DNA of 64,000 nt, from IMG/VR virus record IMGVR_UViG_3300033233_000011. One strand, given 5' to 3'. This stretch comes from an uncultured virus (IMG/VR IMGVR_UViG_3300033233_000011). Lineage: Duplodnaviria > Heunggongvirae > Uroviricota > Caudoviricetes. The notes beneath the pieces are model-generated. The model saw only the letters and a program-made list of their open reading frames with translations. It made no database searches and had not been told where the DNA came from. Within the stretch, counting starts at the first letter, position 1. Every line of letters begins with the position of its first letter. Shown piece after piece: positions 8,878 to 61,302 of this stretch. The position numbers and the translations under genes were made by a program.

Positions 8878-9429
8878 TCACGTGGCCCTCAGCGTGGCGT
8901 AGCGGACGCCGTCGCGCTGCAGCTCGGCGTAGACCGCCTCCTGCCGCAACTTGCCCGCGAGTGTCTCGGCGATCTTGCCGACGTTCTGCTCGAACTTCTG
9001 ATCGTTCTCGGCGCTCAGGCGCAGGATCACGACTTGCACGCTGTCCTCGGGGATGGTCTTGCCCTTCGACTTGCCGCGCGTGTACTTGTACAGGCCGCGC
9101 TGAAGCAGGAACGACGCGCCCGGGTCGCCGCCGATCCGCCGGAGCTGTGCGAGGCGCATCTTCTTCACGATCTTGAGCACGTCGTCGACCGAGTACGTCG
9201 GCACGCCGTCGACCGAGAGCCCCACGAAGATGCGCGCGGACAGGGCCGGGTCCGTGTCGCGAGTGACGGGGTTGCCCTGGCGGGTCGAGTGGCGAAGCGC
9301 GCTCACGTCGCCGATCTCGTAGACCTTGCCGTGCGGCTCGAAGGAGCAGTCCGGGTGGCGAAACGCGCGCAGGTCGACCTTGTAGGTGCCGCGCTTCAGG
9401 GGGTTCGAGAGACGGGTGAAGTCGGTCAT
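8878..9429 (-). CDS. Hypothetical protein with N-terminal RLSNPL tag
   Basis: Begins MTDFTRLSNPL; TACCAT -10-like element just upstream. Confidence 0.7.
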   Translation of the reverse strand: MTDFTRLSNPLKRGTYKVDLRAFRHPDCSFEPHGKVYEIGDVSALRHSTRQGNPVTRDTDPALSARIFVGLSVDGVPTYSVDDVLKIVKKMRLAQLRRIGGDPGASFLLQRGLYKYTRGKSKGKTIPEDSVQVVILRLSAENDQKFEQNVGKIAETLAGKLRQEAVYAELQRDGVRYATLRAT

Positions 9430-13212: not shown

Positions 13213-13270
13213 TTGGTCGGTCTCCTTGCTTCGTGTGTTAGGTGAAACGTCCTACTCGGTCAATCTATTC

Positions 13271-22369: not shown

Positions 22370-22777
22370 GTGAACTACGAGCGCTTCTCGAACCCGCTCA
22401 CCGAGAAGTACCCGCTCGCCGGTGCGAGAGTCGACGGCCGGATCGTCGGCAGCGACGTTCCGAACACCTCTTCGATCGGCGCGAGCCTCGACAGCTACGA
22501 AGTCCTGCGCGGCATCCGCGAGGTCCCGCTCTCGGCGTTCACGCAACTCGGTCCGCTGCGGCCGCGCTACTCGGTGAGCGAGGAGCGCCGGACGAAGGAT
22601 CTGACGGAAGACATCCGTTGGTCCGGTCGAGTCGACCCGCTCATCGTTGTCGAGGACGCCGAGGGGCCGTACGTGCTCGAAGGAGGGCACCGCTTCGACG
22701 CCCTGCGCCGGCTCGGCGCTCGGGCGCTGCCGGCGCTGGTCGTGCTCGACCTCGAAAGCCTCGCGGGTGCGGCGTGA
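22370..22777 (+). CDS. ParB/sulfiredoxin N-terminal-like domain protein with N-terminal RFSNPL tag
   Basis: DI..SGRVDPLIV....YVLEGGHRFDALRRLG; begins (M)NYERFSNPL. Confidence 0.75.
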   Translation: MNYERFSNPLTEKYPLAGARVDGRIVGSDVPNTSSIGASLDSYEVLRGIREVPLSAFTQLGPLRPRYSVSEERRTKDLTEDIRWSGRVDPLIVVEDAEGPYVLEGGHRFDALRRLGARALPALVVLDLESLAGAA

Positions 22778-23732: not shown

Positions 23733-24218
23733 GTGAACTACGAGCGTTTCTCGAACCCGCTCGTAGTTCGGCGCACCTCGAACGCCGGCCGCTCGACGCT
23801 CGACCGCGCCGTCGCGCACTACGGGCTCACGGACTTCTGGCCGTACGCCGGGTACATCCTGCCCGACGGATCGATGCTCGACTTCTCAGAGGGATCCGGC
23901 AGACGGACGCAGGACCACCACAACGTCGAGCAGTTCGTGCGCGTCGGGGAACGCGAGTCCCGGCACGACGCGATGATCAAGTTCATGCGCGTGACGGGTG
24001 CGATCCGCTTCGGCCCCGAGGGCATGACGTTCATGCTCGTCGAGCGACCGACGGGCGACCAGATCCGGCGCATGACCGAGATCGTGCGCGAGTCCGACAA
24101 GCCGCCCGTGCTCGAACTCCGGGACGCCCACGGCGAGGTCGAGTGGCAGCGGGAGTACGAGGACTGGAACCAGCGTGAGTTCGCGCGCGACCTGCGCGCC
24201 TACGGCCCCGGGGAATGA
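23733..24218 (+). CDS. Hypothetical protein with N-terminal RFSNPL tag
   Basis: MNYERFSNPL; contains AGYILPDGSMLDFS...DH. Confidence 0.75.
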   Translation: MNYERFSNPLVVRRTSNAGRSTLDRAVAHYGLTDFWPYAGYILPDGSMLDFSEGSGRRTQDHHNVEQFVRVGERESRHDAMIKFMRVTGAIRFGPEGMTFMLVERPTGDQIRRMTEIVRESDKPPVLELRDAHGEVEWQREYEDWNQREFARDLRAYGPGE

Positions 24219-25077: not shown

Positions 25078-25653
25078 GTGGACTACGGGCGCTTCTCGAA
25101 TCCGCACGGCGGCTCCGCGCGGACCTCGAACCAGCAGGCCGGCATGCCCTGGGGCGAGGGCTACGTCATCATCCCTACGTTCGGCTGGAAGCAGATCGGC
25201 GGGGACGTGAGCGCTGACAAGTACGGCGGCACGATCGCGCGGGCGGACGGGTCGAGCATCGAGCTTTTGAAGATCCAGCCGGTGCGCGAGTACGTCGGCG
25301 AAGGGGAAGCCCGGGACGTCGGCTACCCGTTCTGGACGCGCGAGGCGAGCTTCGACGCTGCCGACCTCGACCCGAACAAGAAGGAAGTGCAGAGCGCGAT
25401 GCGGTCCGTCGGGATCAGCAAGTCCGACCTCGCTGACATGACGCCGGAGGTGCGCGCGGTCGCGCTCGCCGAGGCGATGCTCGACTACGGCCACGCCGAG
25501 GAGGGTCCCGCGGGCTGGTCCAAGGACCTGCCGAACTACGACGTCGAGTGGTCGTACGGCGGCAAGCGACAGAAGATGCGCGAGTACCTCGCCGAGGAGG
25601 ACGACGAGTTCCGGCGCGAGGTGCTCGGCGAAGAGGACGAGGACGAGGAATGA
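25078..25653 (+). CDS. Acidic hypothetical protein with N-terminal RFSNPH tag
   Basis: (M)DYGRFSNPHGG; TTGGCT-17-TAGGCT promoter 7 nt upstream. Confidence 0.75.
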   Translation: MDYGRFSNPHGGSARTSNQQAGMPWGEGYVIIPTFGWKQIGGDVSADKYGGTIARADGSSIELLKIQPVREYVGEGEARDVGYPFWTREASFDAADLDPNKKEVQSAMRSVGISKSDLADMTPEVRAVALAEAMLDYGHAEEGPAGWSKDLPNYDVEWSYGGKRQKMREYLAEEDDEFRREVLGEEDEDEE

Positions 25654-25879: not shown

Positions 25880-26155
25880 GTGGACTACGAGCGGTTCTCA
25901 AATCCGATCAGCGCCCGGAAGCGGCTGAACAAGGAGACCGCGCAAGCACTCGCGACGGCAAAGCGCGAAGGCTGGCGAATCAAGTGGCTCGAACCCGGTG
26001 AAAAGCCCGGACGGAACCTGGTGCGCGCCTGGGTGCAGACGCGCGGCGGCGAGACGCTCACGACTCTCACCAGTGGCAGTCCCATCCCGCGCTCGGAGAG
26101 GAAGAGCTACGAGCACGACCTGTTCTGGGAGGCGTGGATGCGTTCGCGCCGGTGA
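25880..26155 (+). CDS. Hypothetical protein with N-terminal RFSNP tag
   Basis: (M)DYERFSNPI; GGAGG RBS. Confidence 0.7.
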   Translation: MDYERFSNPISARKRLNKETAQALATAKREGWRIKWLEPGEKPGRNLVRAWVQTRGGETLTTLTSGSPIPRSERKSYEHDLFWEAWMRSRR

Positions 26156-27182: not shown

Positions 27183-27455
27183 GTGAGCATCTGGCAGCGG
27201 CTGTCGAATCCTCTGGCTCCGTCAGAAGGCGACGACTACGACGACGTGGAGGGATCTGACCGCGCAGTTTTCGGACAGTACAAGGTACACGTTGACGTCC
27301 ACCAGAGCAGGGCGGTTCCCAGCTACGTCTACGGCTCGATGTACCGCAGCGACGCGATCAGGGTTGCAAAGGCACACAGAGGTCGAGGCAAAACCGTGAC
27401 CGTCATCGACGAAGAAAGCCCCGATGTCGTGTGGCAGAGCGAGAACGGAAGATGA
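27183..27455 (+). CDS. Hypothetical protein with N-terminal RLSNPL tag
   Basis: (M)SIWQRLSNPL. Confidence 0.65.
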   Translation: MSIWQRLSNPLAPSEGDDYDDVEGSDRAVFGQYKVHVDVHQSRAVPSYVYGSMYRSDAIRVAKAHRGRGKTVTVIDEESPDVVWQSENGR

Positions 27456-29807: not shown

Positions 29808-29960
29808 ATGGACTTCGCCCGCTTCTCGAACCCGCTGCAGGCGAACCAGGGCATCGGCCTCGTCCAGCAGCAGCGCCCCGTCGTCCCGAAGCAGCAGCGC
29901 AAGCCGCGAGTCAAGACATCGCGGACCGGAGCGACGCCTACTCGCGAGCGCTTGGTGTAG
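29808..29960 (+). pseudogene. Short ORF resembling the 5' end of the kinase-like gene, upstream of TnpB
   Basis: MDFARFSNPLQANQGIGLVQ vs MNFFQRFSNPLAQNQGIALVQ at 31138. Confidence 0.6.
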
Positions 29961-31137: not shown

Positions 31138-32048
31138 ATGAACTTCTTTCAGCGCTTTTCAAATCCGCTAGCCCAGAACCAGGGCATCGCCCTCGTGCAG
31201 CGACCGCCACGCGAGCCAAGGATCCGCCGTCCTCGGATCAAGCACTGGGCTCAAGCGATTGCAGATCGCTCTGATGCCTACGCAAAAGCTCTGAACGTTC
31301 CACTCGGAGAAATTCTGGGCTGTGGGCACTTCGGCTGCGTGTTCGATTCCACGCCGCCGTGGGTCGTCAAGTTCAGCCTCGACCCGAACGAGGGGCCGAT
31401 CTGGCAGCGGATCCTCGGGCTGCTCGAAGAAGAGTCGTACGGGCAGGGCGGCCTCACGCGCGTCAAGCTCCTGACGCGCATCGATCCCGGCATCAAGTCT
31501 GGGAGCCGGACGAAGAAGCTCTACGCGGTCGTGCGCGAGGCCGTGGCGCCGGCGTTCGTGATGGGGCGCGGCGGCAACACGTACACGCTCTCGCCGTACA
31601 CGGTCCGTCGGCTGGGACTGAACCCCGACCCGACGCTCGGGTGGCACTACGAGCACTACTCGCGCTCGGTCGTCACGGCGGACGGCGGCGAGGCGCACAC
31701 GCCTATCGTGGAAGAGTTCGCCGAGAACGTCCGGGCCATTCAGGTGTACCGAGACGAGGCGCACGACTACCACCGCGGCGACAAGGACACGAGCCGGATC
31801 GAGCGCGCCGTCAACCACCTGCGCGGCTCGACCGGCGGCGCGCTCGGCGAGACGCTCCAGATGCTGCTCTCGAACGACGTCGTGCTCGGCGACGTGCACC
31901 TCTTCAACGTCGGCTGGCGCCTGTACCGGAGCGCGCGGGGTTCTCGGACGAGGACGAGACGCTCGTGGTGTTTGACCCAGGTCACACGCCGACGCGGAAG
32001 AACGTGCCGATCGGCACGACGCTCGTCTCGAACCCGCGGCGGTGCTGA
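31138..32048 (+). CDS. Protein-kinase-like (ePK/APH fold) protein with SNP tags; apparent -1 frameshift near 31925-31940
   Basis: LGCGHFGCVF, VVK and DVHLFNVG in one frame; VVFDPG and the C-terminus in the other frame. Confidence 0.65.
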
Positions 32049-32606
32049 ATGGACTGGTTGCGCCGTCTCTCGAATCCGCTCGCCACGACCCAGGAACCGT
32101 GGGACGTGGCCCGCGAGCGATTGCTCGCGCTGGTGGAGGCGCCGGACGATCCGAGCCCGCAGGCCGTCGCGTCGGCGTTGGAACCGCTCGGACTCGGTGA
32201 CGCGCTCGTGAGCCACGAGGCGATGCGTGTGCTCTCGTTGCTCGGTCACAGGGGATCCGCGACGACGCTCCTGCGCGCCTCGGCTCTGCCTCGTTCTGTC
32301 CCGACGCTCTACGACGCGCGCTCTCTGATCACCGCCGTGCGTCGCCAGCGCGCCGAGAAGGCGGGCGCGGGGCGTACGCGCGCCGCGCTGAAGCGCAGGC
32401 TTGCCGTGCTCTCCGAGGATGATCGGCGGAGCCTCGACTACGCACGGAGCCGCGAGCGCGAGCTGGTGGAGAGGGCGCGCGCGTTCGAGGCGCTCGCGAA
32501 AGAAGGTCACTCGCCGGCGTGGGTTGCTCGAAGCTGGCGCGTACAGGCGCAGCAAGCGACCCGTGAGCGCGAGGTTCTGGAGCAGAGGCTGGCGGGCGTG
32601 CTGTGA
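32049..32606 (+). CDS. Helical hypothetical protein with N-terminal RLSNPL tag
   Basis: MDWLRRLSNPL. Confidence 0.7.
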   Translation: MDWLRRLSNPLATTQEPWDVARERLLALVEAPDDPSPQAVASALEPLGLGDALVSHEAMRVLSLLGHRGSATTLLRASALPRSVPTLYDARSLITAVRRQRAEKAGAGRTRAALKRRLAVLSEDDRRSLDYARSRERELVERARAFEALAKEGHSPAWVARSWRVQAQQATREREVLEQRLAGVL

Positions 32607-43077: not shown

Positions 43078-45059
43078 CTGGTGGCCACCAGTGCCGCGGC
43101 GCCCGCGGCCTTGCTCGTGACGGCGATGCCGAGCGAGTCGTTCGTCGCCGCCGCGTCCACGATCGCGTCGCCGCCGGCCCCGTGACGGAGCGGGTCGCCG
43201 GGAACGACGGCCTGCGCGGCCGCCACCCGGACCTGGGAGGCGTTGCCGGGCTTGGTGACGGCCACCAGGAAGGAACTCAGCGTCGCGGTGTCGTCGGCCG
43301 GCCCCTTGACGACCGTGAGGAAGCGGGCCGGGCTGCCGCCGAGCCCCGCCGCGATGACCTGGCCATCCGTCGTCGGGTCTAGCTCCACTACCGACCCGAG
43401 CGGTAGCGTGGCCGGGTTGCCGGCGCCGTCCAGGACGTCGTTCTGCACCAAGTACACCTCGTCGAGCGTCTGCACGACGCCGTCGAACGTGAACTGCTTG
43501 GCTCGGAACACGGTGCCCACCGGCACGGCTGCACTCAGGCCGAGCAGGTTGCCGCCGCCGGAGCCGCTGACGGTCAGCCGGTCGAACTCGATGAAGGCGG
43601 CCAGGGCGAGGTTCAGGACGAGCGGGGCGCCGTTGTACGTGCCGCCGCTGCCGCCCTGCTCGCGGATGTCCGTCTCGCCGAAGTGGTTCGTGTAGTTGCC
43701 GTTCTGCCACGTGATGGCGGCGGTCGTGCCCCGGATCTTCATGAGCGGGAAGTCGCCGTTCACGTCGCTGATGGAGATCCCGCGCATGCTCGTGCCGACG
43801 CCGAGGTTGATGACCTCCAGCTCGACGTCCCCGGACTGCCCGTCGTGCAGCGAGGCCGCGTAGACGTAGGCGGTGGCGCTCGTGTCCACGTTCTCGATCT
43901 TCACGCCCCGGGCCTCTAGGCCGAAGAAGAAGTCAGCGAGCGTCGCGACCACGTCCGCGCCCGTGTCGATGCCGGCGCCGATCGGAGCGCCGCCGATGTA
44001 GCCGTCGAGGTTGCCCGGCCCGCAGCGCGTGATGCGTTCGGCCGGGTTGCAGTCCGTGATCGTCACGTCGGCGAGCTTCGGGTTGAGGCCCCCGTAGACC
44101 TGGATGCCGATGTTGCCGCCGCCCAGGCGCCCACCGAGGAGCTGGTCGCTGGCGCTCCTGCCGCGGAACGTGACGTTACCGCGCGGAAAGCCGTTCGCGT
44201 GCTGCCGGGCGCCGCCCGGCACGTAGTCGAAGTTGATGATCCGTCCCTCGTGGGCGGAGTTCATCAGCACGTCGGAGTTCGTCTCGCCGACTCGTACGTA
44301 GTCCTCGACGAGGAAGTTCTGCGCCGCCAGCTCCAGGTCGAGCGCCGATCGGCTGAAGCCCCGCATGCGCTGGCCGATGAGCTGCACGTCGAGCGCGTAC
44401 TGCGCCATGATGCCGCTCGCGATGCTGCCGCCCGAGGCGTCCCAGTACCCGCCGATCACCTCGACGTTCCTGACGGGCAGGACGCGCCGGACGCGCGCCG
44501 CCACGGCGACGGACGAGAAGAACTCCAGGAGCGGCGCGTCGAGCGTGAGCACGAGCCCGGCGATGTTGACGACCTTTCGGATCTCGAAGATGAGGATCGA
44601 CCCGGCGCCGGACCCGTAGAGGTCACTGCCGGCCGTGCCGGTGTCGACGCTGAGGACCACGTACTGCCCGACCGCGAGCGCGCCGACGGCGGCGACCGTG
44701 ATCGTCGAGTCGCCGATGTTCCCGTCCGCCGTGAGCGTCGTGTCGAGCGTGACGGCGTCGATCGTGCCCTGCGCGCCGAACAGGTGGTTCTGCGGGTCGT
44801 CGGCGGACCCGACCGGGGGCGCGAGGGTCGTCGTGATGTTGCTCGGGCCGAAGTCGACCGTGACGAACGACCGGCCGGCGAGCGGGGCTTCGAGCACCAC
44901 GTCGCCGCAGACGTACAGGACCTTCTGGTGGCTCTCGCTGCCGAGCAGCGTCAGGGCGTCGAGGAAGAACTGGATCTCGGCCGCGGTGATGGTGGCGCCC
45001 GAGAGCACCGTGCCGCAGGAGGCGGTGCCGGACCCGGACCCCGGCGGGAAGAGCGGCAC
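43074..45059 (-). CDS. Tailspike-like parallel beta-helix protein (candidate receptor-binding protein or depolymerase)
   Basis: Gly/Asn/Ile-rich beta-helix-like repeats, 661 aa. Confidence 0.6.
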   Translation of the reverse strand: MPLFPPGSGSGTASCGTVLSGATITAAEIQFFLDALTLLGSESHQKVLYVCGDVVLEAPLAGRSFVTVDFGPSNITTTLAPPVGSADDPQNHLFGAQGTIDAVTLDTTLTADGNIGDSTITVAAVGALAVGQYVVLSVDTGTAGSDLYGSGAGSILIFEIRKVVNIAGLVLTLDAPLLEFFSSVAVAARVRRVLPVRNVEVIGGYWDASGGSIASGIMAQYALDVQLIGQRMRGFSRSALDLELAAQNFLVEDYVRVGETNSDVLMNSAHEGRIINFDYVPGGARQHANGFPRGNVTFRGRSASDQLLGGRLGGGNIGIQVYGGLNPKLADVTITDCNPAERITRCGPGNLDGYIGGAPIGAGIDTGADVVATLADFFFGLEARGVKIENVDTSATAYVYAASLHDGQSGDVELEVINLGVGTSMRGISISDVNGDFPLMKIRGTTAAITWQNGNYTNHFGETDIREQGGSGGTYNGAPLVLNLALAAFIEFDRLTVSGSGGGNLLGLSAAVPVGTVFRAKQFTFDGVVQTLDEVYLVQNDVLDGAGNPATLPLGSVVELDPTTDGQVIAAGLGGSPARFLTVVKGPADDTATLSSFLVAVTKPGNASQVRVAAAQAVVPGDPLRHGAGGDAIVDAAATNDSLGIAVTSKAAGAAALVATR

Positions 45060-45109: not shown

Positions 45110-46210
45110 TCACGCCGCCTCCGGCGCGCTCAAGCCGAGCGCCAAAATGTTCCGAGCGGCGTTGAGGTCCCTGTCGGCGGTGTAGCCGCAGGACGGGCAG
45201 GCGTGAACACGGATCGAGAGATCCTTGCTCACCACCGTCCCGCACATGCTACACCGCTGACTGGTCCCGCGGGGATCTACGGCGATGACGTGCTTGCCAG
45301 CTTCTTCCGCTTTGCAAGCAATGCACCGCAAGAGGACTCCCCAGGCCGCATCGTGGATCGACTTCGCCAGGTTCCCGCGGACCATCCGCGCGATCTGCAA
45401 ATCTTCGTGGACGATCAGGTCGTAGTCGTTGACGAGCTGCTTGGCGACCTTCCTCGCGTAGTCGAGTCGCTGGTTCTTGATGTGCTCGTGGGAGCGGGCA
45501 ACGAGCCGCTTCGCGCGACGACGAGATCGGCTGTCGCGTTTTCTTCGAGCAAGTATCCGTTGGCGTCGGGCGAGCTGCTCTTCCGCTTCTCGAAAGTACC
45601 GCGGGTTCTCGACGACGCCGCCGTCGGAGAGCGTCGCGAGTTTCGTGAGCCCCACGTCGATCCCGACGACCTTGCCGGGACGAACGGCAACCTTCGGAGG
45701 CGCCTCGCCGACGTCACATGCGACGCAGGCATACCAACCCTTCGCGGAACGATGCAGGATGATGTCGAGCACTTCACCACCGAGGGGCCGGTAGAGGTGC
45801 ACCTTCACGTCGCCGAGCTTCGGGATCCGGATCCTCTTCGCGGCGAGATCGATCGCGACGCGACCGACCGAGAACGAATCGTAGCGGTCGCGACTCTTGA
45901 AGCGGGGATAGCCGGGCGTCTTGCCGGTCTTCACTCGCTGGAAGAACCCCTGAAAGGCGCGTTCGAGGCGACGCAGTGGTGACCGCATGACAGTCACCGG
46001 GATGTCTCGGTACTCGGCGGCGTCGCGACGCAACTTCGTCAACTCCTTCTGCTGGTCGTACCGGGTGATGGAGACTCGCTGACGGCGGTACGCTTCGCGT
46101 CGTTCTTCGAGAGCGGAGTTGTAGAACCTCTGGCAGGTGAGCAACCAGCGATCCAGGATCGCCTCCTGGATCTTCGTCGGTTGGAGCGGGTAGCGAAACG
46201 TCCGAGTCAC
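45110..46210 (-). CDS. tnpB: RNA-guided endonuclease TnpB, second copy, no TnpA
   Basis: FRYPLQPT, GYPRFKS, GIDVG / HEDL / DRDLNAARNI, CSMCG..CPSCG. Confidence 0.95.
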   Translation of the reverse strand: MTRTFRYPLQPTKIQEAILDRWLLTCQRFYNSALEERREAYRRQRVSITRYDQQKELTKLRRDAAEYRDIPVTVMRSPLRRLERAFQGFFQRVKTGKTPGYPRFKSRDRYDSFSVGRVAIDLAAKRIRIPKLGDVKVHLYRPLGGEVLDIILHRSAKGWYACVACDVGEAPPKVAVRPGKVVGIDVGLTKLATLSDGGVVENPRYFREAEEQLARRQRILARRKRDSRSRRRAKRLVARSHEHIKNQRLDYARKVAKQLVNDYDLIVHEDLQIARMVRGNLAKSIHDAAWGVLLRCIACKAEEAGKHVIAVDPRGTSQRCSMCGTVVSKDLSIRVHACPSCGYTADRDLNAARNILALGLSAPEAA

Positions 46211-46523: not shown

Positions 46524-47048
46524 CTAGTACCAGCTCGGCCCCGAAGTCCAACTCAGGGCCGCGCTGCGCGTCTGCCAGCTCCGGCTCTGGCCGTCCCACT
46601 CGAACCAGCGCGAGATGCTCCAGGGGCGGGTCGGCTGGGCCTGGCCGAGCCTCCGGCGCGCCTCGAAGATCTCGACGGCGCTCACGATGGGCATCTTCTG
46701 CTCCAGCCGCTCCCACGCCCGCTCGGACCACGCGACGGGCCCGAGGGTCGGGTCCTCTCGGCTCTCGTACTCGTCGAAGAAGTGCCACGTCGCGGCCGGC
46801 GGCGTCGCCTTGATCCAGGCGGCGATGAAGCCCGAGGCGTCGAGGTACCAGAGGGGGTTGGCTGCTTCGTGCTGCCCCGGCACGGGACGGGGACCGGGAG
46901 GCGGCGGGTAGCCGGCGGGGCGGGCGCTCGGGGGCGGCAGATCGGCGGGCGGAGCGGGCGGAGCGGGGGCGGCGGGCTTCTTCTTCAGCAGCTCGTAGCC
47001 GGCGACGAGGACGCCCGCGCCGATGGCGAGCTTGGCGAAGAAGCTCAT
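46524..47048 (-). CDS. Protein with N-terminal membrane anchor and Pro-rich linker
   Basis: MSFFAKLAIGAGVLVAGYELLKKK. Confidence 0.65.
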   Translation of the reverse strand: MSFFAKLAIGAGVLVAGYELLKKKPAAPAPPAPPADLPPPSARPAGYPPPPGPRPVPGQHEAANPLWYLDASGFIAAWIKATPPAATWHFFDEYESREDPTLGPVAWSERAWERLEQKMPIVSAVEIFEARRRLGQAQPTRPWSISRWFEWDGQSRSWQTRSAALSWTSGPSWY

Positions 47049-47175
47049 GATCCGAAGATCCTCTCGCCGATGCGGCGCAGCCTGACGTTCTCGCGCTCCT
47101 CTGCCGCGCGCAGTCGGCGTTCCTTGGCACTCAGCTTCGAGGGCTGACGACTCTTCGGCTTTCGACGCCTGCGGT

Positions 47176-47670
47176 TCACGACAGTTTCTCCAGCGCCGCG
47201 ACGAAGCTCGGGTTCGTGAGCGCATTCGACCGCGCCCGGCGCACCTGATCGATACACGCCTTGCCGGAGGCGCGGGTCAGCTCGCGGATCGCGAGCGCGC
47301 TGATGAGCCCGCTCCGATTTCTGCCCTGCATGCAGGTCGTGAGGACCCTGCCCTTCATCTTCAGAACGCGCGCGACGAAGTGCGCCGCCGCGCGCGCACG
47401 CCTGTGCTCGGCATCCGAGAGGTCCGCGTCGTCGAGGTCCGCCGAGTGCAGCATCACGCCCGGGAACAGCCGCTCGTCGGGCTCCGCACCGTAGCAGTAC
47501 CGGTACTCGGCCGTCGTCGCCGCGAGCACGAGCGCGTCGAAGCCAGCGCGCCGAACAGCGGACCCCGTAGGCGGCACGCTCCCCTGCCAGAGGCCCGGGT
47601 ACACGCGGTGCGCGTCGAGGCCGGGGGCCTGGGAGACGGCAGCGTAGGTGGGGATCCACTCGAACTGCAC
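47176..47670 (-). CDS. Dual-specificity/PTP-like phosphatase
   Basis: VYPGLWQGS and CX5R loop VLTTCMQGRNRS. Confidence 0.85.
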   Translation of the reverse strand: MQFEWIPTYAAVSQAPGLDAHRVYPGLWQGSVPPTGSAVRRAGFDALVLAATTAEYRYCYGAEPDERLFPGVMLHSADLDDADLSDAEHRRARAAAHFVARVLKMKGRVLTTCMQGRNRSGLISALAIRELTRASGKACIDQVRRARSNALTNPSFVAALEKLS

Positions 47671-47673
47671 GGG

Positions 47674-48255
47674 CTACCTAGGTTGAAAATACGACCCGTC
47701 GTACGTGCGCCTGATCTGCTCGTTGAAGTGCTCCACCCCGGCCTCGCCGTACAGGCGGTGCACGGCCCGGGCCTGGTCGAAGTAGCCCTGGTCGTAGAGC
47801 GCGACGGCCGCGAGGGACGCCTCGCTGATGGGCGGGGAGTGGCTCTTGATCGCTTCGACGATCGCGCCGGCCTCGAAGAACGACAGGCGGCGGAGGTTCC
47901 AGCACTCGACGCCGAGGCAGTACCGCTCCGGCAGGTGCGTCCCGGTGTGCGTCCAGAACTCGGGCAGCCACGGGTAGAGGATCCCCGGGGATCGCTCGGC
48001 CTCGGGGCGGGGGTCGCCGACGGCGCCCGGGGGCGCGTCCGCTCCCTCGAAGGTCACCGCCAGCCTCGTCGGTGCGGCGATCAGGCCGAGCGCCGATCCG
48101 ACGACCGCGCCGAGGGCGGCGCCCTTCACGCCCCCGACGAGCGCCCCGATCCCGGCGCCGGCCGCGGCGGAGCCGACGACCACGCCCATGCCGGTGCTCC
48201 GCTCGGCCGTGATCTTCTTCGGCGGGTCTGTTGAAGTAGCTTCCAGGCCGATCAT
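47674..48255 (-). CDS. Glycine-zipper membrane protein
   Basis: GAGIGALVGG..GAALGAVVG; ends YDGSYFQPR. Confidence 0.65.
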   Translation of the reverse strand: MIGLEATSTDPPKKITAERSTGMGVVVGSAAAGAGIGALVGGVKGAALGAVVGSALGLIAAPTRLAVTFEGADAPPGAVGDPRPEAERSPGILYPWLPEFWTHTGTHLPERYCLGVECWNLRRLSFFEAGAIVEAIKSHSPPISEASLAAVALYDQGYFDQARAVHRLYGEAGVEHFNEQIRRTYDGSYFQPR

Positions 48256-48908
48256 CAGTAGTCCATCGGGTTCGAGAAGAGTGCGTAGGGGTTCGAGGTC
48301 CGGCCCCCGGGCTCAGCGTACTCCACGCTCCGCCCCGCCGGGCGACCGAGTGCGTTCCGGCCCTCGGTCGTGATCTGCGTCGCGCCGGCCTTGTTTCGCT
48401 TCAGCCACCCGCGCGCGACGAAAGCGTCCAGCTCCGCCGGGCTCGGCGGGTGCCGCTCGCGCGCCCACTCGTCCTTCCTGCCCGCGGAGGTCAGGGCGTC
48501 GAACGTGTAGAGCACCCACCGCTCGCGCGGCGTGACCGAGACGCCGGCTGCCGGCAGCAGGGGCGCGAGCATGTCGGGCCGCACGTACACGCGCGCGTTC
48601 GTCGGGTGACCGCCGCCGGACGAGCCCCTGACGACCGCGACGTTCGCCGGGATCCGGTAGGCGTTTCGATCGAGGTCCACGCGGTTCTCGGGGCTGAACA
48701 TGTTCGCGCCGCCCCAGGATCCCCACTCGACCTCGTGCCTGCCGCTCGACAGGTCCACGATCGCGAAGAACTCGCGCCGCCCCGCGCCGCCGGCGCCGAG
48801 CGGGGAGATCTCTTCGGCGGCCTCCACCTCGATGTCCTTCCTGCCGTAGCCGACCTCGTCGAGGGCGCGCTGGATGGCGTCGGGCAGGTCGGAGGTCTTG
48901 GCGTACAC
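48255..48908 (-). CDS. Hypothetical protein with C-terminal FSNP tag
   Basis: Ends RTSNPYALFSNPMDY. Confidence 0.75.
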   Translation of the reverse strand: MYAKTSDLPDAIQRALDEVGYGRKDIEVEAAEEISPLGAGGAGRREFFAIVDLSSGRHEVEWGSWGGANMFSPENRVDLDRNAYRIPANVAVVRGSSGGGHPTNARVYVRPDMLAPLLPAAGVSVTPRERWVLYTFDALTSAGRKDEWARERHPPSPAELDAFVARGWLKRNKAGATQITTEGRNALGRPAGRSVEYAEPGGRTSNPYALFSNPMDY

Positions 48909-48911
48909 GGC

Positions 48912-49322
48912 TCACTCGCCCCCGTGCGGGTTCGAGAAGCGCGCGTACGGGTTCCCCTCCGGGTTGCCCCGGCGCTCTTTTCGGACCGCGGCGCGCTTCT
49001 TCGCGGGGCTCATCTTGTGGTGCCACTGCGCGCCGCACACCGCGCCGGCGTCCCTGACCTTGCCGCCGGCTTCGACGCCAGCGATGCAGCGGCGCATCCA
49101 CTGCTTCGGGGGGCGGCCGGGGTTGGAGGTGCGGCCGGCCTCGCCCAGTATCTCTGCGAGACTGATACGTACCGCCTGAGCCCCCATGACGCTCAGATTG
49201 GCGGGGCTCTCTGGTTCAGCCGCCAATCCCAAACGGTAGCGAAGGTACCGCTCGGCATACTCGCGCTTGGCATCGTTCCGGATCTTTCGCACGTACCGAT
49301 GTGCTGCTTCCTTGGCCGTCAC
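48912..49322 (-). CDS. Basic hypothetical protein with C-terminal FSNP tag
   Basis: Ends GNPYARFSNPHGGE; internal RTSNP. Confidence 0.7.
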   Translation of the reverse strand: MTAKEAAHRYVRKIRNDAKREYAERYLRYRLGLAAEPESPANLSVMGAQAVRISLAEILGEAGRTSNPGRPPKQWMRRCIAGVEAGGKVRDAGAVCGAQWHHKMSPAKKRAAVRKERRGNPEGNPYARFSNPHGGE

Positions 49323-49663
49323 GACAAACCCCCGTGCGGGTTCGAGAACATGGCGTACGGGTTCTTGACCCGGACGGTCTGCGTCGAGGTCGTGACCGTC
49401 TTGGTGATCTTCTTCGGGTTCGAGGAGCGGGGGTCGAACACCGTCGCGTGCTCGTCGATCCAAACGTTGCCCAAGGGCGTCACGAAGTAATGACCGCGTC
49501 GGCTGCTTTCGATGATGCGCGCACTTTCGAGCGCTCCGATCGTCATCGGCCGGCGGTGCACGGAGTAGAAACGGAAATCTGCCGGCGTCCAGTCCGGAGA
49601 GTGCTTCTCTTCGAGCGTCTTCAGGATGATCGCCGTGTCGTGCTTGTCTCCGCGGTAGCTCAT
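49319..49663 (-). CDS. Hypothetical protein with C-terminal FSNP tag
   Basis: Ends KNPYAMFSNPHGGLS. Confidence 0.7.
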   Translation of the reverse strand: MSYRGDKHDTAIILKTLEEKHSPDWTPADFRFYSVHRRPMTIGALESARIIESSRRGHYFVTPLGNVWIDEHATVFDPRSSNPKKITKTVTTSTQTVRVKNPYAMFSNPHGGLS

Positions 49664-50091
49664 CGCGCCCCCCACGGGTTCGAGAACGTCTTCGGGTTCG
49701 TCATCCGTCCCCGCCCCGACGCCGCGGCTCCTACCAACGCTCCTCCTACGGCCCCCGCCGCCGCGCCCACGGGCCCGCCGACGACCGCGCCGAGCACGGC
49801 GCCCGAGGCGCCGCCCACGAGCATGTTCGTGTTCGAGGAGGGGTTGCTCCGGCGCGGCTCGCGGACGACGAGCGTGCCGGAGCGGGCGTGGACCCACTCG
49901 CGCTTGACGATCTGCGAGGCCTTCCACTCCTCTTCCGTGCCGACGCGAAAGGGCCCGCGCCGCGCGGTGTACCGGACGCGGACGTCGCCGACCTCGGGCC
50001 GGGAGCGCACGACGACGGCGGGGACCAGGCCCGCCCCGATCGAGTCGAGGAAGACCTTGTCACCGGGGGCGAAGTCGGAGGCGCTAGCCAC
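49660..50091 (-). CDS. SH3-like plus glycine-zipper protein with C-terminal FSNP tag
   Basis: Ends TNPKTFSNPWGAR. Confidence 0.7.
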   Translation of the reverse strand: MASASDFAPGDKVFLDSIGAGLVPAVVVRSRPEVGDVRVRYTARRGPFRVGTEEEWKASQIVKREWVHARSGTLVVREPRRSNPSSNTNMLVGGASGAVLGAVVGGPVGAAAGAVGGALVGAAASGRGRMTNPKTFSNPWGAR

Positions 50092-50356
50092 AGTTGCATC
50101 CGAAGGGGTTCGAGAAGCGAGTGGGATTGTTGTAGCGATCGAACAGCGTCGCCAACTCGGGGGCGAGGCGCCGGTAGCCCTCCAGCTTGTCCATCTCGAC
50201 GATGAAGTGGCCGTCGCGGGAGACTCCCTTCACCTCACCGTAGCGAGCGCCGCGCATCCACAGGTCGGTACCCGGGTGCAACTCGAAGCGGCGACCGAGA
50301 ACACCCTGCGCCTCGGCTCGTTCGATGTCGGCGGTGCTTCGCTTCGTACGTCTCAT
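50084..50356 (-). CDS. Small protein with C-terminal FSNP tag
   Basis: Ends NNPTRFSNPFGCNCG. Confidence 0.7.
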   Translation of the reverse strand: MRRTKRSTADIERAEAQGVLGRRFELHPGTDLWMRGARYGEVKGVSRDGHFIVEMDKLEGYRRLAPELATLFDRYNNPTRFSNPFGCNCG

Positions 50357-50499
50357 GGGCCCCCCATCGGGTTCGAGAAGCCGGCCGGCACGTAGTCGCG
50401 GCGCTGCGCGACGCGCGTGCCGTCCGAGAGCAGCGTGAAGTCGCCGAGCCTGGCGGAGTACAGCATCACGACGCGGTCGCCGGGCTTGTAGTCCTTCAC
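50353..50499 (-). CDS. 48-aa protein with C-terminal FSNP tag
   Basis: Ends AGFSNPMGGP; GTGA overlap start. Confidence 0.6.
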   Translation of the reverse strand: MKDYKPGDRVVMLYSARLGDFTLLSDGTRVAQRRDYVPAGFSNPMGGP

Positions 50500-50893
50500 G
50501 GCGACCTGTGCGGGTTCGAGAAGAAGGTCGGGCTCATTGGGTTGTGGTGTCTCTCTACCGTGGGGCCCGATTTGCTGCGCCGGATCTGCGTCGTGCCGTC
50601 GTCGTTCGTCGCCCACTCCGTGGCGGCGGCGATGGCGTCGGCAACTTCTTCGGACGGTCCCGAGGCGTCCTCACGTTGTCCGTGTAGTAGCTGCCGAACG
50701 AGATCGCACTCCGGGCCATCTCGTCGTATGCCTCTGGCGAGTCGTAGGCGATCCCTGGCCCGAAGCCGATCGGCGCTGCGTGAAGGTTCTCAAATCTCCA
50801 AATCTTGCCGCCGGCTGAGATGCTGCCGGCGTAGTCGCCCCGGTCCCGATACGTGATCCGGACGACCGCGTCGCCGATGTACCGGGTGGCCAC
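50496..50893 (-). CDS. Hypothetical protein with C-terminal FSNP tag; apparent frameshift near 50673
   Basis: MATRYIG...YYTDN continues in another frame as EDASGPSEEVAD...HNPMSPTFFSNPHRSP*. Confidence 0.6.
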
Positions 50894-50907
50894 GGGCGCA
50901 TCCTACC

Positions 50908-52209
50908 CTACGCCGCGCGCCACGAGTAGCTCCAGCCGTGGTCCACCCACTCCGACCCGCCCGAGGCGGGGTCCACGTGCAGGCCCCAGTCCCGCCAGGC
51001 GAACCAGGGCGGGTTGTTCGGGACCGCCTGCGCGTGGCACGCCTCGCTCCCCGAGCAGTCCAGGACCCAGCCCGCGACCCACTTCCAGCGCTCGATGTAC
51101 CACGCCCGGACGGGCCAGCCCGCTTCGAGGCTCCCCGGGATGGTCCCCGGCACGTCGGGCAGCGCCGGGATCGAGGCGGCGAGGGACGAGACGCGCTTCG
51201 GCGAAACCCACCAGCCCAGGATCGCCCCGGCGAGGGCCCCGAGGACCGTGCTCGCCTGCGTGCCGATGACGGCGCCGATGGTCGCGCCGACGGCCGTCCC
51301 CGCGATGGTCGTGCCCGCCTTGCCGCCGGTCGCCGCGCTCGCCGCGCTCGGGACGCCCCCGACCGGCGGCGTCTTCGGGGGCGGCTTCATGGTCTGCGTG
51401 CCCGGGGGCACGAGCGCCATCGGGGGCACGGTGGGCGTGCTCGGGGTGCCTCCCTGAGCGAAGCCGGGGAGCGGGCCCTCGTGGGAGACGAGCGCGTTGC
51501 CTGGGGATGCGCCCGTGTAGACGTCGGCGAGGTCCACGTCGGCACCGTTCAGCTTCGCGGATCTTTTGACCCAGCGCCCGAGCTGCGAATAATCCGTGTG
51601 AGAATCTGGATGCGCCGTTCCGACGCCCTGCAAGACCCACTCGTTCGGGATCGAGACGCTGCGCTCCGCGCCGCGCGCGCGCTGCCCGACCGACGCAGAC
51701 ACGTGAAAACCGTAGTTCGCCGCCTTCTTCGCGGCCAGGGCATTCGGCGTGAAGATCGCGCGAGCGATGACCCAGTCCTTGCCAGATCCGGAGACGAGCT
51801 GGTCCGGCACGGCGCCCTGCGCCGCGAGCTTCGAGTCGATGCGCTGGCTCTGCTCGATCATCGACGCCGTCGACATCGGGATCCCGCCCGTCGCCGGGTT
51901 GTACGGCATCGTGAGCGGGAAGAGCCGGTTGGACGAGGCCGTCGCGCTCCAGATCGCGTCCGAGAGCTTCGGCGTGAGCAGGAGCAGGAAGAGCATGTCG
52001 GCGATCTTCTGCTGCGTCTTGGCGTTCACGTCCACGCGCACGTCGTCCACCTTCAGCGCGTCGCACGAGACTTCGAGTTCGAGCGTGTTCTCGCCGTCAG
52101 ACAGAGTGAGAGGGCACCACGCGAAGACCGCGCGGCCCGTGACGACCGCTTCGAGCGTCTTCTGGTCCCGGTCGTCGCCGGGGGACGAGGGCCAGTCATC
52201 CAGCGGCAT
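50908..52209 (-). CDS. 433-aa hypothetical protein with Pro linker and glycine-zipper TM
   Basis: Long GC3-biased ORF; GATIGAVIG...GALAGAILGWW. Confidence 0.7.
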   Translation of the reverse strand: MPLDDWPSSPGDDRDQKTLEAVVTGRAVFAWCPLTLSDGENTLELEVSCDALKVDDVRVDVNAKTQQKIADMLFLLLLTPKLSDAIWSATASSNRLFPLTMPYNPATGGIPMSTASMIEQSQRIDSKLAAQGAVPDQLVSGSGKDWVIARAIFTPNALAAKKAANYGFHVSASVGQRARGAERSVSIPNEWVLQGVGTAHPDSHTDYSQLGRWVKRSAKLNGADVDLADVYTGASPGNALVSHEGPLPGFAQGGTPSTPTVPPMALVPPGTQTMKPPPKTPPVGGVPSAASAATGGKAGTTIAGTAVGATIGAVIGTQASTVLGALAGAILGWWVSPKRVSSLAASIPALPDVPGTIPGSLEAGWPVRAWYIERWKWVAGWVLDCSGSEACHAQAVPNNPPWFAWRDWGLHVDPASGGSEWVDHGWSYSWRAA

Positions 52210-52705
52210 CTAGGGCCTCCGTGTACGAGAACTCCGGGTGCTCGACGCGGTGGCACGAGGAGCAGAGCCACTGGACGTCGAAGAAGTGCTCAGGTTCGTA
52301 GCCGAGATGATGGTGCCCCTGCGCCGGAGTCTTGCCGCACTTTTCGCACGGCTGCCGGATGATGTGCCCACCACGGACAGCCGTAGCAAATCGCATACGA
52401 GCCAAGAGCTTCAGCTTGTGTGCGTCGGAAGCATGGCGCTTGAGATCGGCACGCCGCTGTGTTGCTTTCCCTTTGTCGGACTGCGCGTAGCGCCGATCGT
52501 TCTCGCGGTACGCTGCCGTCTTCCGGTACGCGGCGTTGCAGGCCTTGCACTGCGTCTGTAGGCCGTCGGGCCCGCGATTCCAGTGCGCGAACGCCCCGCA
52601 CACCTTCGTGGTCTTGCACTTCGGGCAGAACTTCGTCGCGACCGCGTCGAGGATCCTCTGCGAGCGCTCGGCTCCGGGACCGGAGGGCCAACCGTCGAGG
52701 GCCAC
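52196..52705 (-). CDS. Zinc-finger HNH-type homing endonuclease
   Basis: CPKC...F.....DGLQ.QCKAC; PCEKCG...HHH..Y...VQWLCSSCH. Confidence 0.85.
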   Translation of the reverse strand: MALDGWPSGPGAERSQRILDAVATKFCPKCKTTKVCGAFAHWNRGPDGLQTQCKACNAAYRKTAAYRENDRRYAQSDKGKATQRRADLKRHASDAHKLKLLARMRFATAVRGGHIIRQPCEKCGKTPAQGHHHLGYEPEHFFDVQWLCSSCHRVEHPEFSYTEALDAAG

Positions 52706-53282: not shown

Positions 53283-53693
53283 TCACAGTCCGAGTCGGTT
53301 CCGCACCCACGTCACGGTCGCGTCCGAGACCTGGCCGCGAAACAAAACGATCCGCCGGTCCACGAGCAGCTCCAGGAACCGCGGCCCGCCCGGCGTGATG
53401 CTCCGCAGGTACTGCTCGACGACGAGCGCCCGGCCGTAGACGATCTCCCCAGAGCCGACCTCCCGGCCGTCCACGCGGATCGTGACCCACGCGAGCGGCA
53501 GCTCGGGCTCGACCGCGACCGGGTAGTAGCCGTCGTAGAGCCACGGGTAGCCGCCGCCCCAGAACCCGCCGCGAAAACCGCCGCCGTGGTGCCCGTGATG
53601 CCCGTGATGCCCGCCGCCCCCGCCCCAGTGGCCGAAGTGCGGCGGCGCGTCCACGCCCGTGCGGGTCCCGTAGCCGTCGTAGAGGTCGAACAT
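53283..53693 (-). CDS. Gly/His-rich protein with MFDLYDGY tag
   Basis: MFDLYDGY...GGHHGHHGHHGGGF; internal LYDGYY. Confidence 0.7.
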   Translation of the reverse strand: MFDLYDGYGTRTGVDAPPHFGHWGGGGGHHGHHGHHGGGFRGGFWGGGYPWLYDGYYPVAVEPELPLAWVTIRVDGREVGSGEIVYGRALVVEQYLRSITPGGPRFLELLVDRRIVLFRGQVSDATVTWVRNRLGL

Positions 53694-53702
53694 CCCGGGG
53701 GC

Positions 53703-54296
53703 TCAGGCCGCCGCGGCCTTCGGCGCCATGGCGCTGCCGACGATCGCACCGACGACCGCGCCCGCGCCCGCGCCGATCGGGCCGCCCGCGAAGAAGCCCA
53801 CGCCGCCGCCGACCAGCAGGCCCGCGATGAGGGGCATGTTGCTCTTCTCCTTCTTGGCGCCGGCCGCGACCGGAGGAGCGGGCGGTCCCTGGATGATCGC
53901 GAAGTCCATCCCCGGGGCGGCGAACTGCTTGGCCGACGCGAGCGAACTCGTGACCCAGACGTCCACGTAGCCCATCGTCATCGTCGCGAGGTTCGCGACG
54001 ACGAAGCTGCCGGGCGGCGCCGCCCTCAGCGTGTCCAGGGCGTTCGGGCCGTCGCACGACCCGCCCACCTTCTTCACCTCCGCGCATGTCATCGCGCTGT
54101 AGCCCATCGCGTCCGGTCCCGGGGCCTTCACCTGCGGGGAGAAGTAGAGCTGCGACAGGAAGCCCTGGGCCGACACGACGGCGCCGGGGACGGCCCACTG
54201 CACGCCGTCGCGGACTTCGGTCGAGCCCGCCGGAGCCGCGCCGAGGTCTCCCGATCCGCCGTCGTTCCGCGAGTACCCGTCGTAGAGGTCGAACAT
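53703..54296 (-). CDS. Glycine-zipper membrane protein with MFDLYDGY tag
   Basis: N-terminal tag; C-terminal GGPIGAGAGAVVGAIVG. Confidence 0.7.
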   Translation of the reverse strand: MFDLYDGYSRNDGGSGDLGAAPAGSTEVRDGVQWAVPGAVVSAQGFLSQLYFSPQVKAPGPDAMGYSAMTCAEVKKVGGSCDGPNALDTLRAAPPGSFVVANLATMTMGYVDVWVTSSLASAKQFAAPGMDFAIIQGPPAPPVAAGAKKEKSNMPLIAGLLVGGGVGFFAGGPIGAGAGAVVGAIVGSAMAPKAAAA

Positions 54297-56137: not shown

Positions 56138-56639
56138 GACGAGGTTTCTCTTCTTGGCTGCGCTGGTGAGCGGGTGCTCGTCGGGGGCGTTCGAGACGAA
56201 CGACGGAACGGACGGGGCGGGCGATCAGGAAGCCGCCGCGCCCGACACCACGATCGACGCGGTTTTCGAAGTCCTCAGCGAAGCCACCACTGACGCCGAC
56301 ACGGAAGCGGCTCCCGTCGAGACGGAGGCGGGCGACGGCGGCGCGTGCGTCTCCGGCTCCACGCGCCCGTGCAACTGCTCGCTCGGCATCGAGGGGCAGG
56401 AGAGCTGCATCGACTTCGAGTGGGGCGTCTGCTCGATCCCGGAGAACGGCGTGTGCTGCAGTCAGCCCGGCGAGTGGGTCGGTTGCTGGAGCACGGGCTG
56501 TAGCGTGTGCTCGGATCTCATAGCTGGCTACCCGTCCTACTGGGCTCACCACCCGGACTGCCTGCCGATCGAGTGCGCGCCGACACAGCGCGGCGGCTGC
56601 TCCTCGGCCTGCCCGCCTCCGACGGAGACCGACCGCTAG
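56136..56639 (+). CDS. Cys-rich lipoprotein of myxobacterial type
   Basis: Lipobox LVSGC, acidic linker, many Cys. Confidence 0.65.
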   Translation: MTRFLFLAALVSGCSSGAFETNDGTDGAGDQEAAAPDTTIDAVFEVLSEATTDADTEAAPVETEAGDGGACVSGSTRPCNCSLGIEGQESCIDFEWGVCSIPENGVCCSQPGEWVGCWSTGCSVCSDLIAGYPSYWAHHPDCLPIECAPTQRGGCSSACPPPTETDR

Positions 56640-57996: not shown

Positions 57997-58010
57997 CGGT
58001 TCTCCGGCGT

Positions 58011-58044
58011 GGAAGCCTCAGCCTTCAGGCCGGGGTAGGTTTAC
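58011..58044 (+). mobile_element. Orphan IS200/IS605 right-end-like hairpin
   Basis: GGAAGCCTCAGCCTTCAGGCCGGGGTAGGTTTAC resembles the common GAAGCCCC..CCTTCAGG..GGGG.AG.T(C/T)AC right end. Confidence 0.6.
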
Positions 58045-61184: not shown

Positions 61185-61302
61185 CGGTGCAGCCCCGCCG
61201 AGCACATCGTGAAGAGCGCGAGCACCAAGATCGCGGTGATGACCCATTCGAGGCGGTCCGCGATGCGGTTGAGCGCGCGCACGACTTCGTCACCCGGCGC
61301 GT

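Follow-up and report, generated by a model that had tools for sequence, protein, structure and literature searches.

Terminal degrons of AAA+ proteases are exposed, unstructured peptides found at the N- or the C-terminus of proteins of many kinds. In T-even phages, the capsid targeting sequence is restricted to the N-terminus and is removed by the prohead protease. The available portions of PMC3012670 and PMC9958956 present this sequence as a short, conserved terminal peptide borne by unrelated small proteins from neighbouring variable genes and directed to one assembly partner, while those of PMC11664910, PMC11866011 and PMC11659603 present the cargo-loading peptides of encapsulins as transferable end peptides on flexible linkers that dock unrelated cargo in a phage-capsid-like shell. 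Here we analyse a peptide tag built around the residues F-S-N-P (FSNP) in a 64,000-nucleotide stretch of DNA from an uncultured virus of the class Caudoviricetes (IMG/VR record IMGVR_UViG_3300033233_000011), called the window below, where unrelated proteins carry the tag at either the N- or the C-terminus. Literature on the FSNP motif, on FSNP in phages and on short linear motifs of phage accessory proteins turned up, in the portions available, no described FSNP system; the original prediction, made from the letters and a list of open reading frames (ORFs), had known of none either.

That prediction had singled out seven consecutive genes on the minus strand, here called the cassette. Their C-termini are exactly as it gave them: within 48255-50522 the ORFs end in RTSNPYALFSNPMDY, GNPYARFSNPHGGE, KNPYAMFSNPHGGLS, TNPKTFSNPWGAR, NNPTRFSNPFGCNCG, AGFSNPMGGP and, in a shifted frame, HNPMSPTFFSNPHRSP, each followed by the stop codon. 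Likewise as foreseen, FSNP stands 3-6 codons before the stop in 7/7 cassette genes. The second NP that had been placed 5-7 residues further upstream was found in 6/7 genes, at the wider spacing of 4-8 residues before FSNP, and is missing from gene 6. The seven genes are listed below, with tails given up to the stop codon. The box at the tip of the tail is called outer; an additional box, R-x-S-N-(P/A/Q), lies at the junction of tail and body and is called inner.

48255..48908, minus strand: cassette gene 1, 217 amino acids (aa), body of a beta-domain and a winged helix; tail ...GGRTSNPYALFSNPMDY; inner box RTSNP, outer FSNP codons 48267-48278
48912..49322, minus strand: cassette gene 2, 136 aa from the GTG at 49322 (a longer ORF reaches 49463), no Pfam or PHROG family matched; tail ...GNPEGNPYARFSNPHGGE; inner box GRTSNP at residue 64, FSNP codons 48927-48938
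49319..49663, minus strand: cassette gene 3, 114 aa; tail RSSNPKKITKTVTTSTQTVRVKNPYAMFSNPHGGLS; FSNP codons 49337-49348
49660..50091, minus strand: cassette gene 4, 143 aa, with a glycine-zipper stretch (Gly-zipper_YMGG, E=3e-6, slightly below the Pfam cut-off); tail ...GRMTNPKTFSNPWGAR; inner box PRRSNP, FSNP codons 49675-49686
50084..50356, minus strand: cassette gene 5, 90 aa, small beta-barrel body (phrog_5546, E=2e-8); tail ...DRYNNPTRFSNPFGCNCG; FSNP codons 50105-50116
50353..50499, minus strand: cassette gene 6, 48 aa from the GTG at 50499; tail ...DYVPAGFSNPMGGP; FSNP codons 50368-50379
50496..50893, minus strand: cassette gene 7, a single gene with a -1 frame break near 50640-50670; tail ...ERHHNPMSPTFFSNPHRSP; FSNP codons 50511-50522

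The tagged set extends well beyond 48255..50893, the range to which the original prediction had limited it: nine further genes are tagged at the N-terminus, and one of these (31138-32048) also has the C-terminal ending VSNPRRC. Six-frame translation of the whole 64-kb window yielded 17 copies of [FLIVMWY]SNP, every one of them terminal in its ORF, with nine at the N-terminus and eight at the C-terminus (the seven of the cassette and ...TTLVSNPRRC, before the stop, at 32025). The N-terminal boxes start 5-6 residues past the start codon, in the forms MTDFTRLSNPL, (M)NYERFSNPL (twice), (M)DYGRFSNPH, (M)DYERFSNPI, (M)SIWQRLSNPL, MDFARFSNPL, MNFFQRFSNPL and MDWLRRLSNPL. Against the 17 copies observed, 200 second-order Markov simulations of the window gave a mean of 1.70 and a maximum of 5; among called proteins the motif was found 13 times, against a mean of 0.40 and a maximum of 4 in 1000 residue shuffles. 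Every copy lies at most 12 residues from an ORF end, a zone holding 15% of residues (P ~1e-14). A scan for terminal enrichment against a shuffled control, the check that had been proposed with the prediction, came out far above chance. The 11-mer TTCTCSAACCC, allowing at most one mismatch, occurs 15 times (mean 1.78, maximum 6 in 100 shuffles), FSNP is the most frequent 4-mer of the predicted proteome (11 proteins), and the S-N-P count is 18 where composition predicts 1.5. The approximately 16 carriers are spread over 42 kb (8878-50893), and about one in seven predicted proteins is tagged. The tag is a real, protein-level terminal peptide module that is specific to this lineage. The N-tagged genes are as follows.

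8878..9429, minus strand: N-tagged gene, 183 aa, beginning MTDFTRLSNPL...
22370..22777, plus strand: N-tagged gene with a ParB_N-like body (ParB_N, E=1e-5, at the Pfam cut-off), beginning (GTG)NYERFSNPL...; hexamer TAGCCT 7 nucleotides (nt) upstream of the GTG (22357-22362)
23733..24218, plus strand: N-tagged gene, 161 aa, beginning (GTG)NYERFSNPLVVRRTSNAG...; outer box FSNP, inner box RTSNA
25078..25653, plus strand: N-tagged gene, 191 aa, beginning (GTG)DYGRFSNPHGGSARTSNQ...; hexamer TAGGCT 7 nt upstream of the GTG (25065-25070); Asn codon AAT; no family match and no usable ESM Atlas match
25880..26155, plus strand: N-tagged gene, 91 aa, beginning (GTG)DYERFSNPI...; box codons TTC TCA AAT CCG
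27183..27455, plus strand: N-tagged gene, 90 aa, beginning (GTG)SIWQRLSNPL...; box codons CTG TCG AAT CCT
29808..29960, plus strand: short N-tagged ORF, 50 aa, beginning MDFARFSNPLQANQGIGLVQ..., immediately 5' of a TnpB-like gene; its first ~20 residues are similar to the start of gene 31138
31138..32048, plus strand: gene tagged at both ends, with N-terminus MNFFQRFSNPL (TTT TCA AAT CCG) and C-terminus ...TTLVSNPRRC, before the stop, after a -1 switch near 31917-31940
32049..32606, plus strand: N-tagged gene, 185 aa, beginning MDWLRRLSNPL...; box codons CTC TCG AAT CCG

The hexamer and the seven bases before the GTG at 22370 and at 25078 have a geometry that we take to be that of leaderless transcripts, which are presumably common in Actinobacteria, and the shared hexamers (22357-22372 and 25065-25080), whose flanks are also similar, hint at the host and at a duplicated module of promoter plus tag. 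In gene 31138 the G+C signal at third codon positions (GC3) shifts from frame 0 to frame 2 at 31917-31940. An impression that this gene is kinase-like had no Pfam support and was dropped.

The motif is conserved as a peptide, we conclude, and not as DNA. Each of the 17 copies is read in frame from the coding strand, with no intergenic copy among them. Differences between the N-terminal copies are confined to synonymous positions, with AAT in 5/9, TCA in two and TTT, CCT, CTG and CTC in addition, codons that are rare by comparison with the usage of the window (AAC 94%, TCG 38%, TTC 92%). The shorter DNA core CTCGAAC shows no preferred position: its 44 copies fall in every frame and on either strand, so that no rule at the DNA level emerges beyond the peptide. 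In the cassette the distance from box to next start is 23, 30, 26, 23, 25, 23 and 23 nt; the phase to that start differs in 2/7 genes, yet each box keeps the frame of the gene that it ends. On the 3' side of each cassette box is a G-run resembling a Shine-Dalgarno sequence, followed by the start of the next gene, often in an ATGA or GTGA overlap with the stop. The distance from FSNP to the stop is fixed because this G-run and start codon dictate the last 3-6 residues, which are MDY, HGGE, HGGLS, WGAR, FGCNCG, MGGP and HRSP. The cassette tag would on this account sit as near the chain end as the layout of the operon permits.

Comparison with homologues and structure models suggests that the tag is an add-on, grafted onto ordinary protein families as a disordered tail. 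Gene 1 is part of a widespread family; its 86 homologues end soon after the last conserved block, and 0/86 have SNP in the tail; the closest of them, P0002 (81% identity), is alone among the 86 in having a degenerate tag, ...SGNPAARFSRVLNPWSRS. For gene 5, whose family consists of small proteins, 0/81 homologues have SNP in the last 20 residues. AlphaFold models of genes 1 and 5, based on the alignments of these homologues, give their tails a predicted local distance difference test score (pLDDT) of 54-58, against bodies above 85-90: for gene 1 the score exceeds 90 to about residue 190 and is 54-58 over the last 20 residues, and for gene 5 the core spans residues 21-70 and the last 20 residues score 55-57. 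Foldseek found the C-terminal 67-73 aa of gene 1 to be similar to MarR-type winged helices, and no full-length structural match for its body. The bodies of the seven cassette proteins, called unrelated in the original prediction, are so according to Pfam and PHROGs; the exception is that genes 4-6 may share a small beta-barrel, modelled for gene 5 and a sequence impression for genes 4 and 6.

The inner box sets the carriers apart from the other genes of the window. It reads GRTSNP, GRTSNP, PRSSNP and PRRSNP in cassette genes 1-4, RRTSNA and ARTSNQ in two N-tagged genes, and ARTSNP and RASNA in relatives. Tagged genes have 15 copies of R-x-S-N over 2,045 residues, versus a single copy over 17,130 residues of untagged ones. 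The spacer between the two boxes ranges from 3 to ~60 residues, and comprises a glycine-zipper stretch in gene 4 and a Thr/Ser-rich one in gene 3.

Tags persist in a related phage. P0089 (75% identity) is the sole relative of gene 23733 and begins MTDWARFSNPLRASNAG, versus MNYERFSNPLVVRRTSNAG in the window; the RFSNPL core and the aromatic position are kept and other residues are altered. P0173 is the orthologue of gene 7. Its residues 1-68 are 66% identical to the frame-0 part of that gene and its residues 68-133 align to the shifted-frame part, while its tail, RTSNPKKITKTSTVSTTTTRVMNPGFFSNPWGR, is 70% identical (23/33) to the tail of gene 3, to which it is otherwise unrelated. Two related phages thus have one complete 33-residue tail on different bodies, which is direct evidence of portability. 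Among relatives, where the original prediction had proposed to look for the motif, P0089 and P0173 keep the tag and P0002 has it in degenerate form. The prediction's proposal of a portable tag on unrelated proteins is supported by the peptide-level conservation, the absence of the tag from homologues, the low-confidence tails and the tail found on a different body in a relative. Its more specific suggestions, a virion-packaging signal, a maturation-protease site or a scaffold-binding motif, are candidate functions here.

The prediction had also stated that the tag of gene 7 is reached through a frameshift, and the shifted-frame ending was recovered, with the GC3 signal changing frame at the break. 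Since P0173 is a single intact ORF, gene 7 is one gene and its break a lesion or strain variant, not a conserved programmed shift. The break has the same sequence in a second assembly of the same sequencing run, contigs of that run being identical over 47600-51000. Programmed frameshifting as a means of adding the tag was considered and is unlikely for this gene, given the single ORF of P0173 and no evident slippery site. Only two frame breaks were seen, in genes 7 and 31138, and both are within tagged genes.

We consider it likely that the tag is a portable, disordered terminal docking or address tail with two boxes, read by one common partner. The phage lineage has grafted this tail onto some 16 proteins that are otherwise unrelated, N-terminally in some and C-terminally in others. 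The tip of the tail is the outer box, of the form aromatic-x-(R)-[F/L]-S-N-P and often with another N-P before it, and the inner box R-x-S-N-(P/A/Q) marks the point where the tail meets the folded body. One reader protein may bind the exposed S-N-P boxes and so gather diverse cargo. Since the motif occurs at either end of the chain and the residues at the chain end vary, a binding groove that grips an exposed peptide is favoured over a machine that needs a free terminus; the N-terminal copies argue against any function requiring a free C-terminus.

As to purpose, loading into or onto an assembly built by the phage, such as the capsid interior, is ranked first by analogy with the known systems, albeit tentatively; recruitment to a hub comes next and timed degradation after it. 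The cassette lies within a long same-strand array that runs into genes taken, as an impression, to be tail-fibre-like (that at 43074-45059 has a capsule-lyase domain at E=0.009, below the Pfam cut-off). A more specific and somewhat more doubtful form of the loading idea is a two-ended cargo code, in which a reader in the procapsid or another compartment would take S-N-P from either terminus, so that about one accessory protein in seven would be delivered together with the DNA. The cargo would include DNA-binding, ParB-like and small beta-barrel proteins, and any gene could become new cargo once the tail had recombined onto it.

Should the tail be an address label, it would be a compact transferable handle of ~10-35 residues that functions from either end of a protein, and some 16 orphan genes would share a destination or partner, reducing them to one question, that of the S-N-P reader. 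A proline-containing, bipolar type would then join the few known phage targeting peptides, and might be put to use in engineering, to load proteins into phage-derived particles.

Several observations weigh against this reading, and those on the virion weigh against loading in particular. No reader protein was identified, and none of the genes in the 64-kb window could be recognised as coding for a capsid, scaffold, portal or prohead-protease protein. The tagged proteins are many for virion loading and include winged-helix and ParB_N-like ones, and two N-tagged genes stand behind leaderless-type, promoter-like hexamers and not in a structural module. The relatives represent a single lineage, seen as three proteins (P0002, P0089 and P0173) from short assembled contigs. 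Because the FSNP box is broken in P0002 (...RFSRVLNPW...), the tag seems to be dispensable on some carriers. Two tagged genes, gene 7 and gene 31138, require a frame shift to reach the C-terminal box. The gene set (121 genes) and its start codons come from our own crude codon-usage caller. Finally, all seven cassette copies share one 11-base DNA sequence, TTCTCGAACCC, which has P ~4e-4 from codon usage and points to recent copying or to an added constraint at the nucleotide level.

This last observation also speaks for a different account, according to which the box is a nucleotide element at gene junctions, either a context for translation coupling or ribosome binding or a homology box for cassette shuffling, and is merely read through. 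Ser has three common codons and still the 11-mer is identical in the seven cassette copies; these boxes lie 23-30 nt before the next start, directly 5' of the G-run and the ATGA/GTGA overlaps, and genes 2 and 3 have 12+20 identical bases around the box. The N-tagged genes 22370 and 25078 have the upstream hexamer and spacer in common, whole tails have moved between bodies, and short-repeat recombination is documented in Cluster O phages in the available portion of PMC4351075. A junction element would not be expected in a single coding frame in 17/17 cases with none intergenic, nor 3' of the start codon, where nine copies lie, nor with differences that are only synonymous among the N-terminal copies and a phase to the next start that differs in 2/7. 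The seven junctions have no conserved RNA fold (RNAalifold: three C-G pairs, -1.7 kcal/mol, no covariation), the window has no Rfam match at gathering score, the cassette strand has no promoter-like or terminator-like site, and the relative retains the tag residues with changed flanks. We regard the junction account as improbable for the motif as such: it is plausible for how tails spread, not as the reason why the motif exists. The DNA identity within the cassette more likely reflects recent copying of tails than nucleotide constraint, and may itself help recombination.

Three other accounts accept a peptide signal and differ in what reads it. Recruitment by a short linear motif to one host or phage hub (replisome, transcription or cell envelope) is unlikely, though less so than the others. 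The tag behaves like such a motif, being short, disordered, present at either terminus and quickly gained or lost between relatives, and a second shared N-terminus, MFDLYDGY on four genes, suggests wider use of peptides; still, it has no likeness to any hub-binding motif tested, and some 16 clients of a single hub are many for a phage. It is rather more unlikely that the box is a degron that hands its carriers over, with or without an adaptor, to an AAA+ protease or unfoldase for scheduled removal. Strictly terminal placement on disordered extensions at either end would suit a degron, the carriers include likely regulators or enzymes (the winged-helix and ParB_N-like bodies), and a classical AAA ATPase (PF00004, E=6e-26) is among the phage genes, at 13271-14842. 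Repressors and integrases of actinobacteriophages can reportedly carry C-terminal ssrA-like tags. Yet the chain-end residues vary in length and chemistry, the same box at both termini would be unusual for direct engagement by a single unfoldase, and no protease domain was found in the window. A scan of 20 kb of Corndog, which has a 43%-identical ATPase, showed no terminal SNP motif; because that region is untagged, the ATPase family does not appear to travel with the tag, and the AAA ATPase is a weak candidate for the reader. Lastly, the S-N-P boxes could be processing sites, at which a protease or Asn-Pro self-cleavage would trim the tails or release peptides. Two boxes do bracket each tail, and some viral and secretion proteins cleave themselves at Asn-Pro bonds. 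Known Asn-Pro self-cleavage needs a folded context, however, whereas the models show these tails as disordered; the window yielded no recognisable protease, and cleavage would leave a common tail on unrelated proteins unexplained. Processing is accordingly very improbable. Ribosome skipping of the 2A type, amyloid signalling motif pairs and a glycosylation sequon serving the glycosyltransferases of the phage were also considered and are not favoured.

Set against the described systems, the docking tail would be unusual in being both bipolar and two-boxed. The restriction of the T-even capsid targeting sequence to the N-terminus does not hold here (nine N-terminal and eight C-terminal copies), and the FSNP tail has two boxes. 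It resembles encapsulin cargo-loading peptides in being a terminal peptide modelled as disordered (pLDDT 54-58) and missing in 81/81 and 85/86 homologues. Its sequence is different, however, and whereas encapsulin cargo genes adjoin the shell gene, the approximately 16 FSNP carriers extend over 42 kb and no shell or capsid (HK97-fold) family was matched in the 64-kb window, which belongs to a contig listed with 119,384 bases in the protein database. In contrast to terminal AAA+ degrons, FSNP stands 3-6 residues from the chain end and the end residues are variable. Sortase and exosortase signals do not fit, as the 3-6 residues after FSNP leave no room for a membrane helix and basic tail and N-terminal copies exist. 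The start-associated sequences of Cluster K and the promoter/stem-loop cassettes of T4-type phages are said to be short repeats near the boundaries of blocks of small genes. Such junction repeats, with the 17-bp repeat of Cluster O, are like the FSNP boxes in having many short copies near gene boundaries, where recombination can shuffle genes; they are non-coding or independent of frame, whereas every FSNP box is read as protein in a single frame and its variation is synonymous. According to the available portion of PMC4351075 the Cluster O repeat is a palindrome, and its 17-bp consensus had no matches in the window at up to two mismatches.

Searches beyond the window found few tagged proteins. 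Among 1.84 billion representative proteins, a profile built from 16 tags matched four at E<=0.001, namely cassette gene 3, P0173 and a pair of unrelated repeat proteins; a 15-residue motif is too short to reach significance in a search of this size, so that a negative there is not proof of absence. The phage collection had no DNA match to 47000-52500. The IMG/VR protein search gave no match for gene 1 and two loci only for 50908-52209, at 39% identity and untagged. A 14-mer for R-F-S-N-P matched at least 120 IMG/VR loci, once each and in many cases inside long ORFs, with no tagged relative among the matches listed, and the degenerate patterns for N-P-Y-A-x-F-S-N-P and M-[DN]-[YF]-x-R-F-S-N-P gave one IMG/VR locus each, both unrelated. 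The N-P-Y-A-x-F-S-N-P pattern found 63 loci in JGI metagenomes (49 of one AT-rich repeat and 14 singletons in other contexts) and 14 loci in GTDB genomes, which is about the chance number, none of them terminal in a phage-like high-GC context. These pattern scans cover just 3/7 cassette tags or one N-terminal copy, so that diverged systems would be missed.

The AT-rich repeat (26-40% G+C, non-coding) is present in L130 at about 4990-5030 and at 48 other metagenome loci; it translates as ...NPYALFSNP[MI]L..., closed by a stop, and in L130 has no Rfam match. It is taken as unrelated to the phage tag. Another locus, L123 (3788-5689; also L174), encodes a 633-aa protein on a viral contig of 34% G+C, adjoining fibre-like genes. 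In this protein a hydrophobic stretch at the N-terminus is followed by ~30 repeats of seven residues, of the form [FM]-[ST]-N-P-[YF]-[AS]-G, and then by a long Gln-rich part.

The window has 68% G+C, the great majority of its genes have no family in Pfam or PHROGs, and it resembles a section of a large tailed phage or prophage. One sequencing run containing this DNA was listed, labelled sediment metagenome and probably its source, and no RNA run. Its genes include two tyrosine integrases, two TnpB-like genes, HNH endonucleases, an M15/VanY-type peptidase, a block of glycosyltransferases and methyltransferases and the AAA ATPase. The ATPase module occupies 11909-14842 on the minus strand; the ATPase is 43% identical to Corndog gp96 (phrog_8638, E=3e-144) and its neighbours match phrog_11021 and phrog_11784. 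From these matches, the ATPase and its neighbours look like a conserved module common to Cluster O mycobacteriophages. Outside this module the window had no DNA match in the phage collection.

Three further N-termini are shared between different genes of the window. MFDLYDGY begins four genes, at 26400-26621 and 26622-26897 on the plus strand and at 53283-53693 and 53703-54296 on the minus strand; one has a glutaredoxin domain (E=4e-8), and the DNA of the four copies is nearly identical. The peptide resembles what we take to be the sliding-clamp-binding pentapeptides of bacteria, and Corndog-type phages encode their own clamp. The minus-strand genes 50908-52209 and 52196-52705 have the N-terminus M-[PA]-L-D-[DG]-W-P-S-[SG]-P-G...[KR]-[TI]-L-[ED]-A-V in common; the former encodes 433 aa with a glycine-zipper stretch and a Trp-rich end, and the latter is HNH-endonuclease-like (phrog_2340, E=1e-22). 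A third, MP[IL]FP(P)G followed by a Gly/Ser run, is shared by 41409-41888 (minus strand, 159 aa) and the 661-aa tail-fibre-like protein of 43074-45059 (minus strand).

The two TnpB or Cas12f-like genes (IS605 OrfB) are at 29973-31070 on the plus strand and 45110-46210 on the minus strand (phrog_506, E=2e-91 and 2e-102). The former lies between the 50-aa ORF and gene 31138, the two whose first ~20 residues resemble each other. The sugar-modification genes, at 54857-61205 and 38073-39872 on the minus strand, comprise a C-methyltransferase (Methyltransf_14, E=3e-50), an FkbM-type methyltransferase, a GT1-type glycosyltransferase and two GT2-like ones, one with a weak TPR match; similar genes are linked to capsid modification in the discussion of Cluster O in the available portion of PMC4351075. 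Next to the cassette, a 193-aa gene (47674-48255) separates gene 1 from a dual-specificity-phosphatase-like gene at 47176-47670 on the minus strand (DSPc, E=7e-6, under the Pfam cut-off; phrog_10650, E=1e-7).

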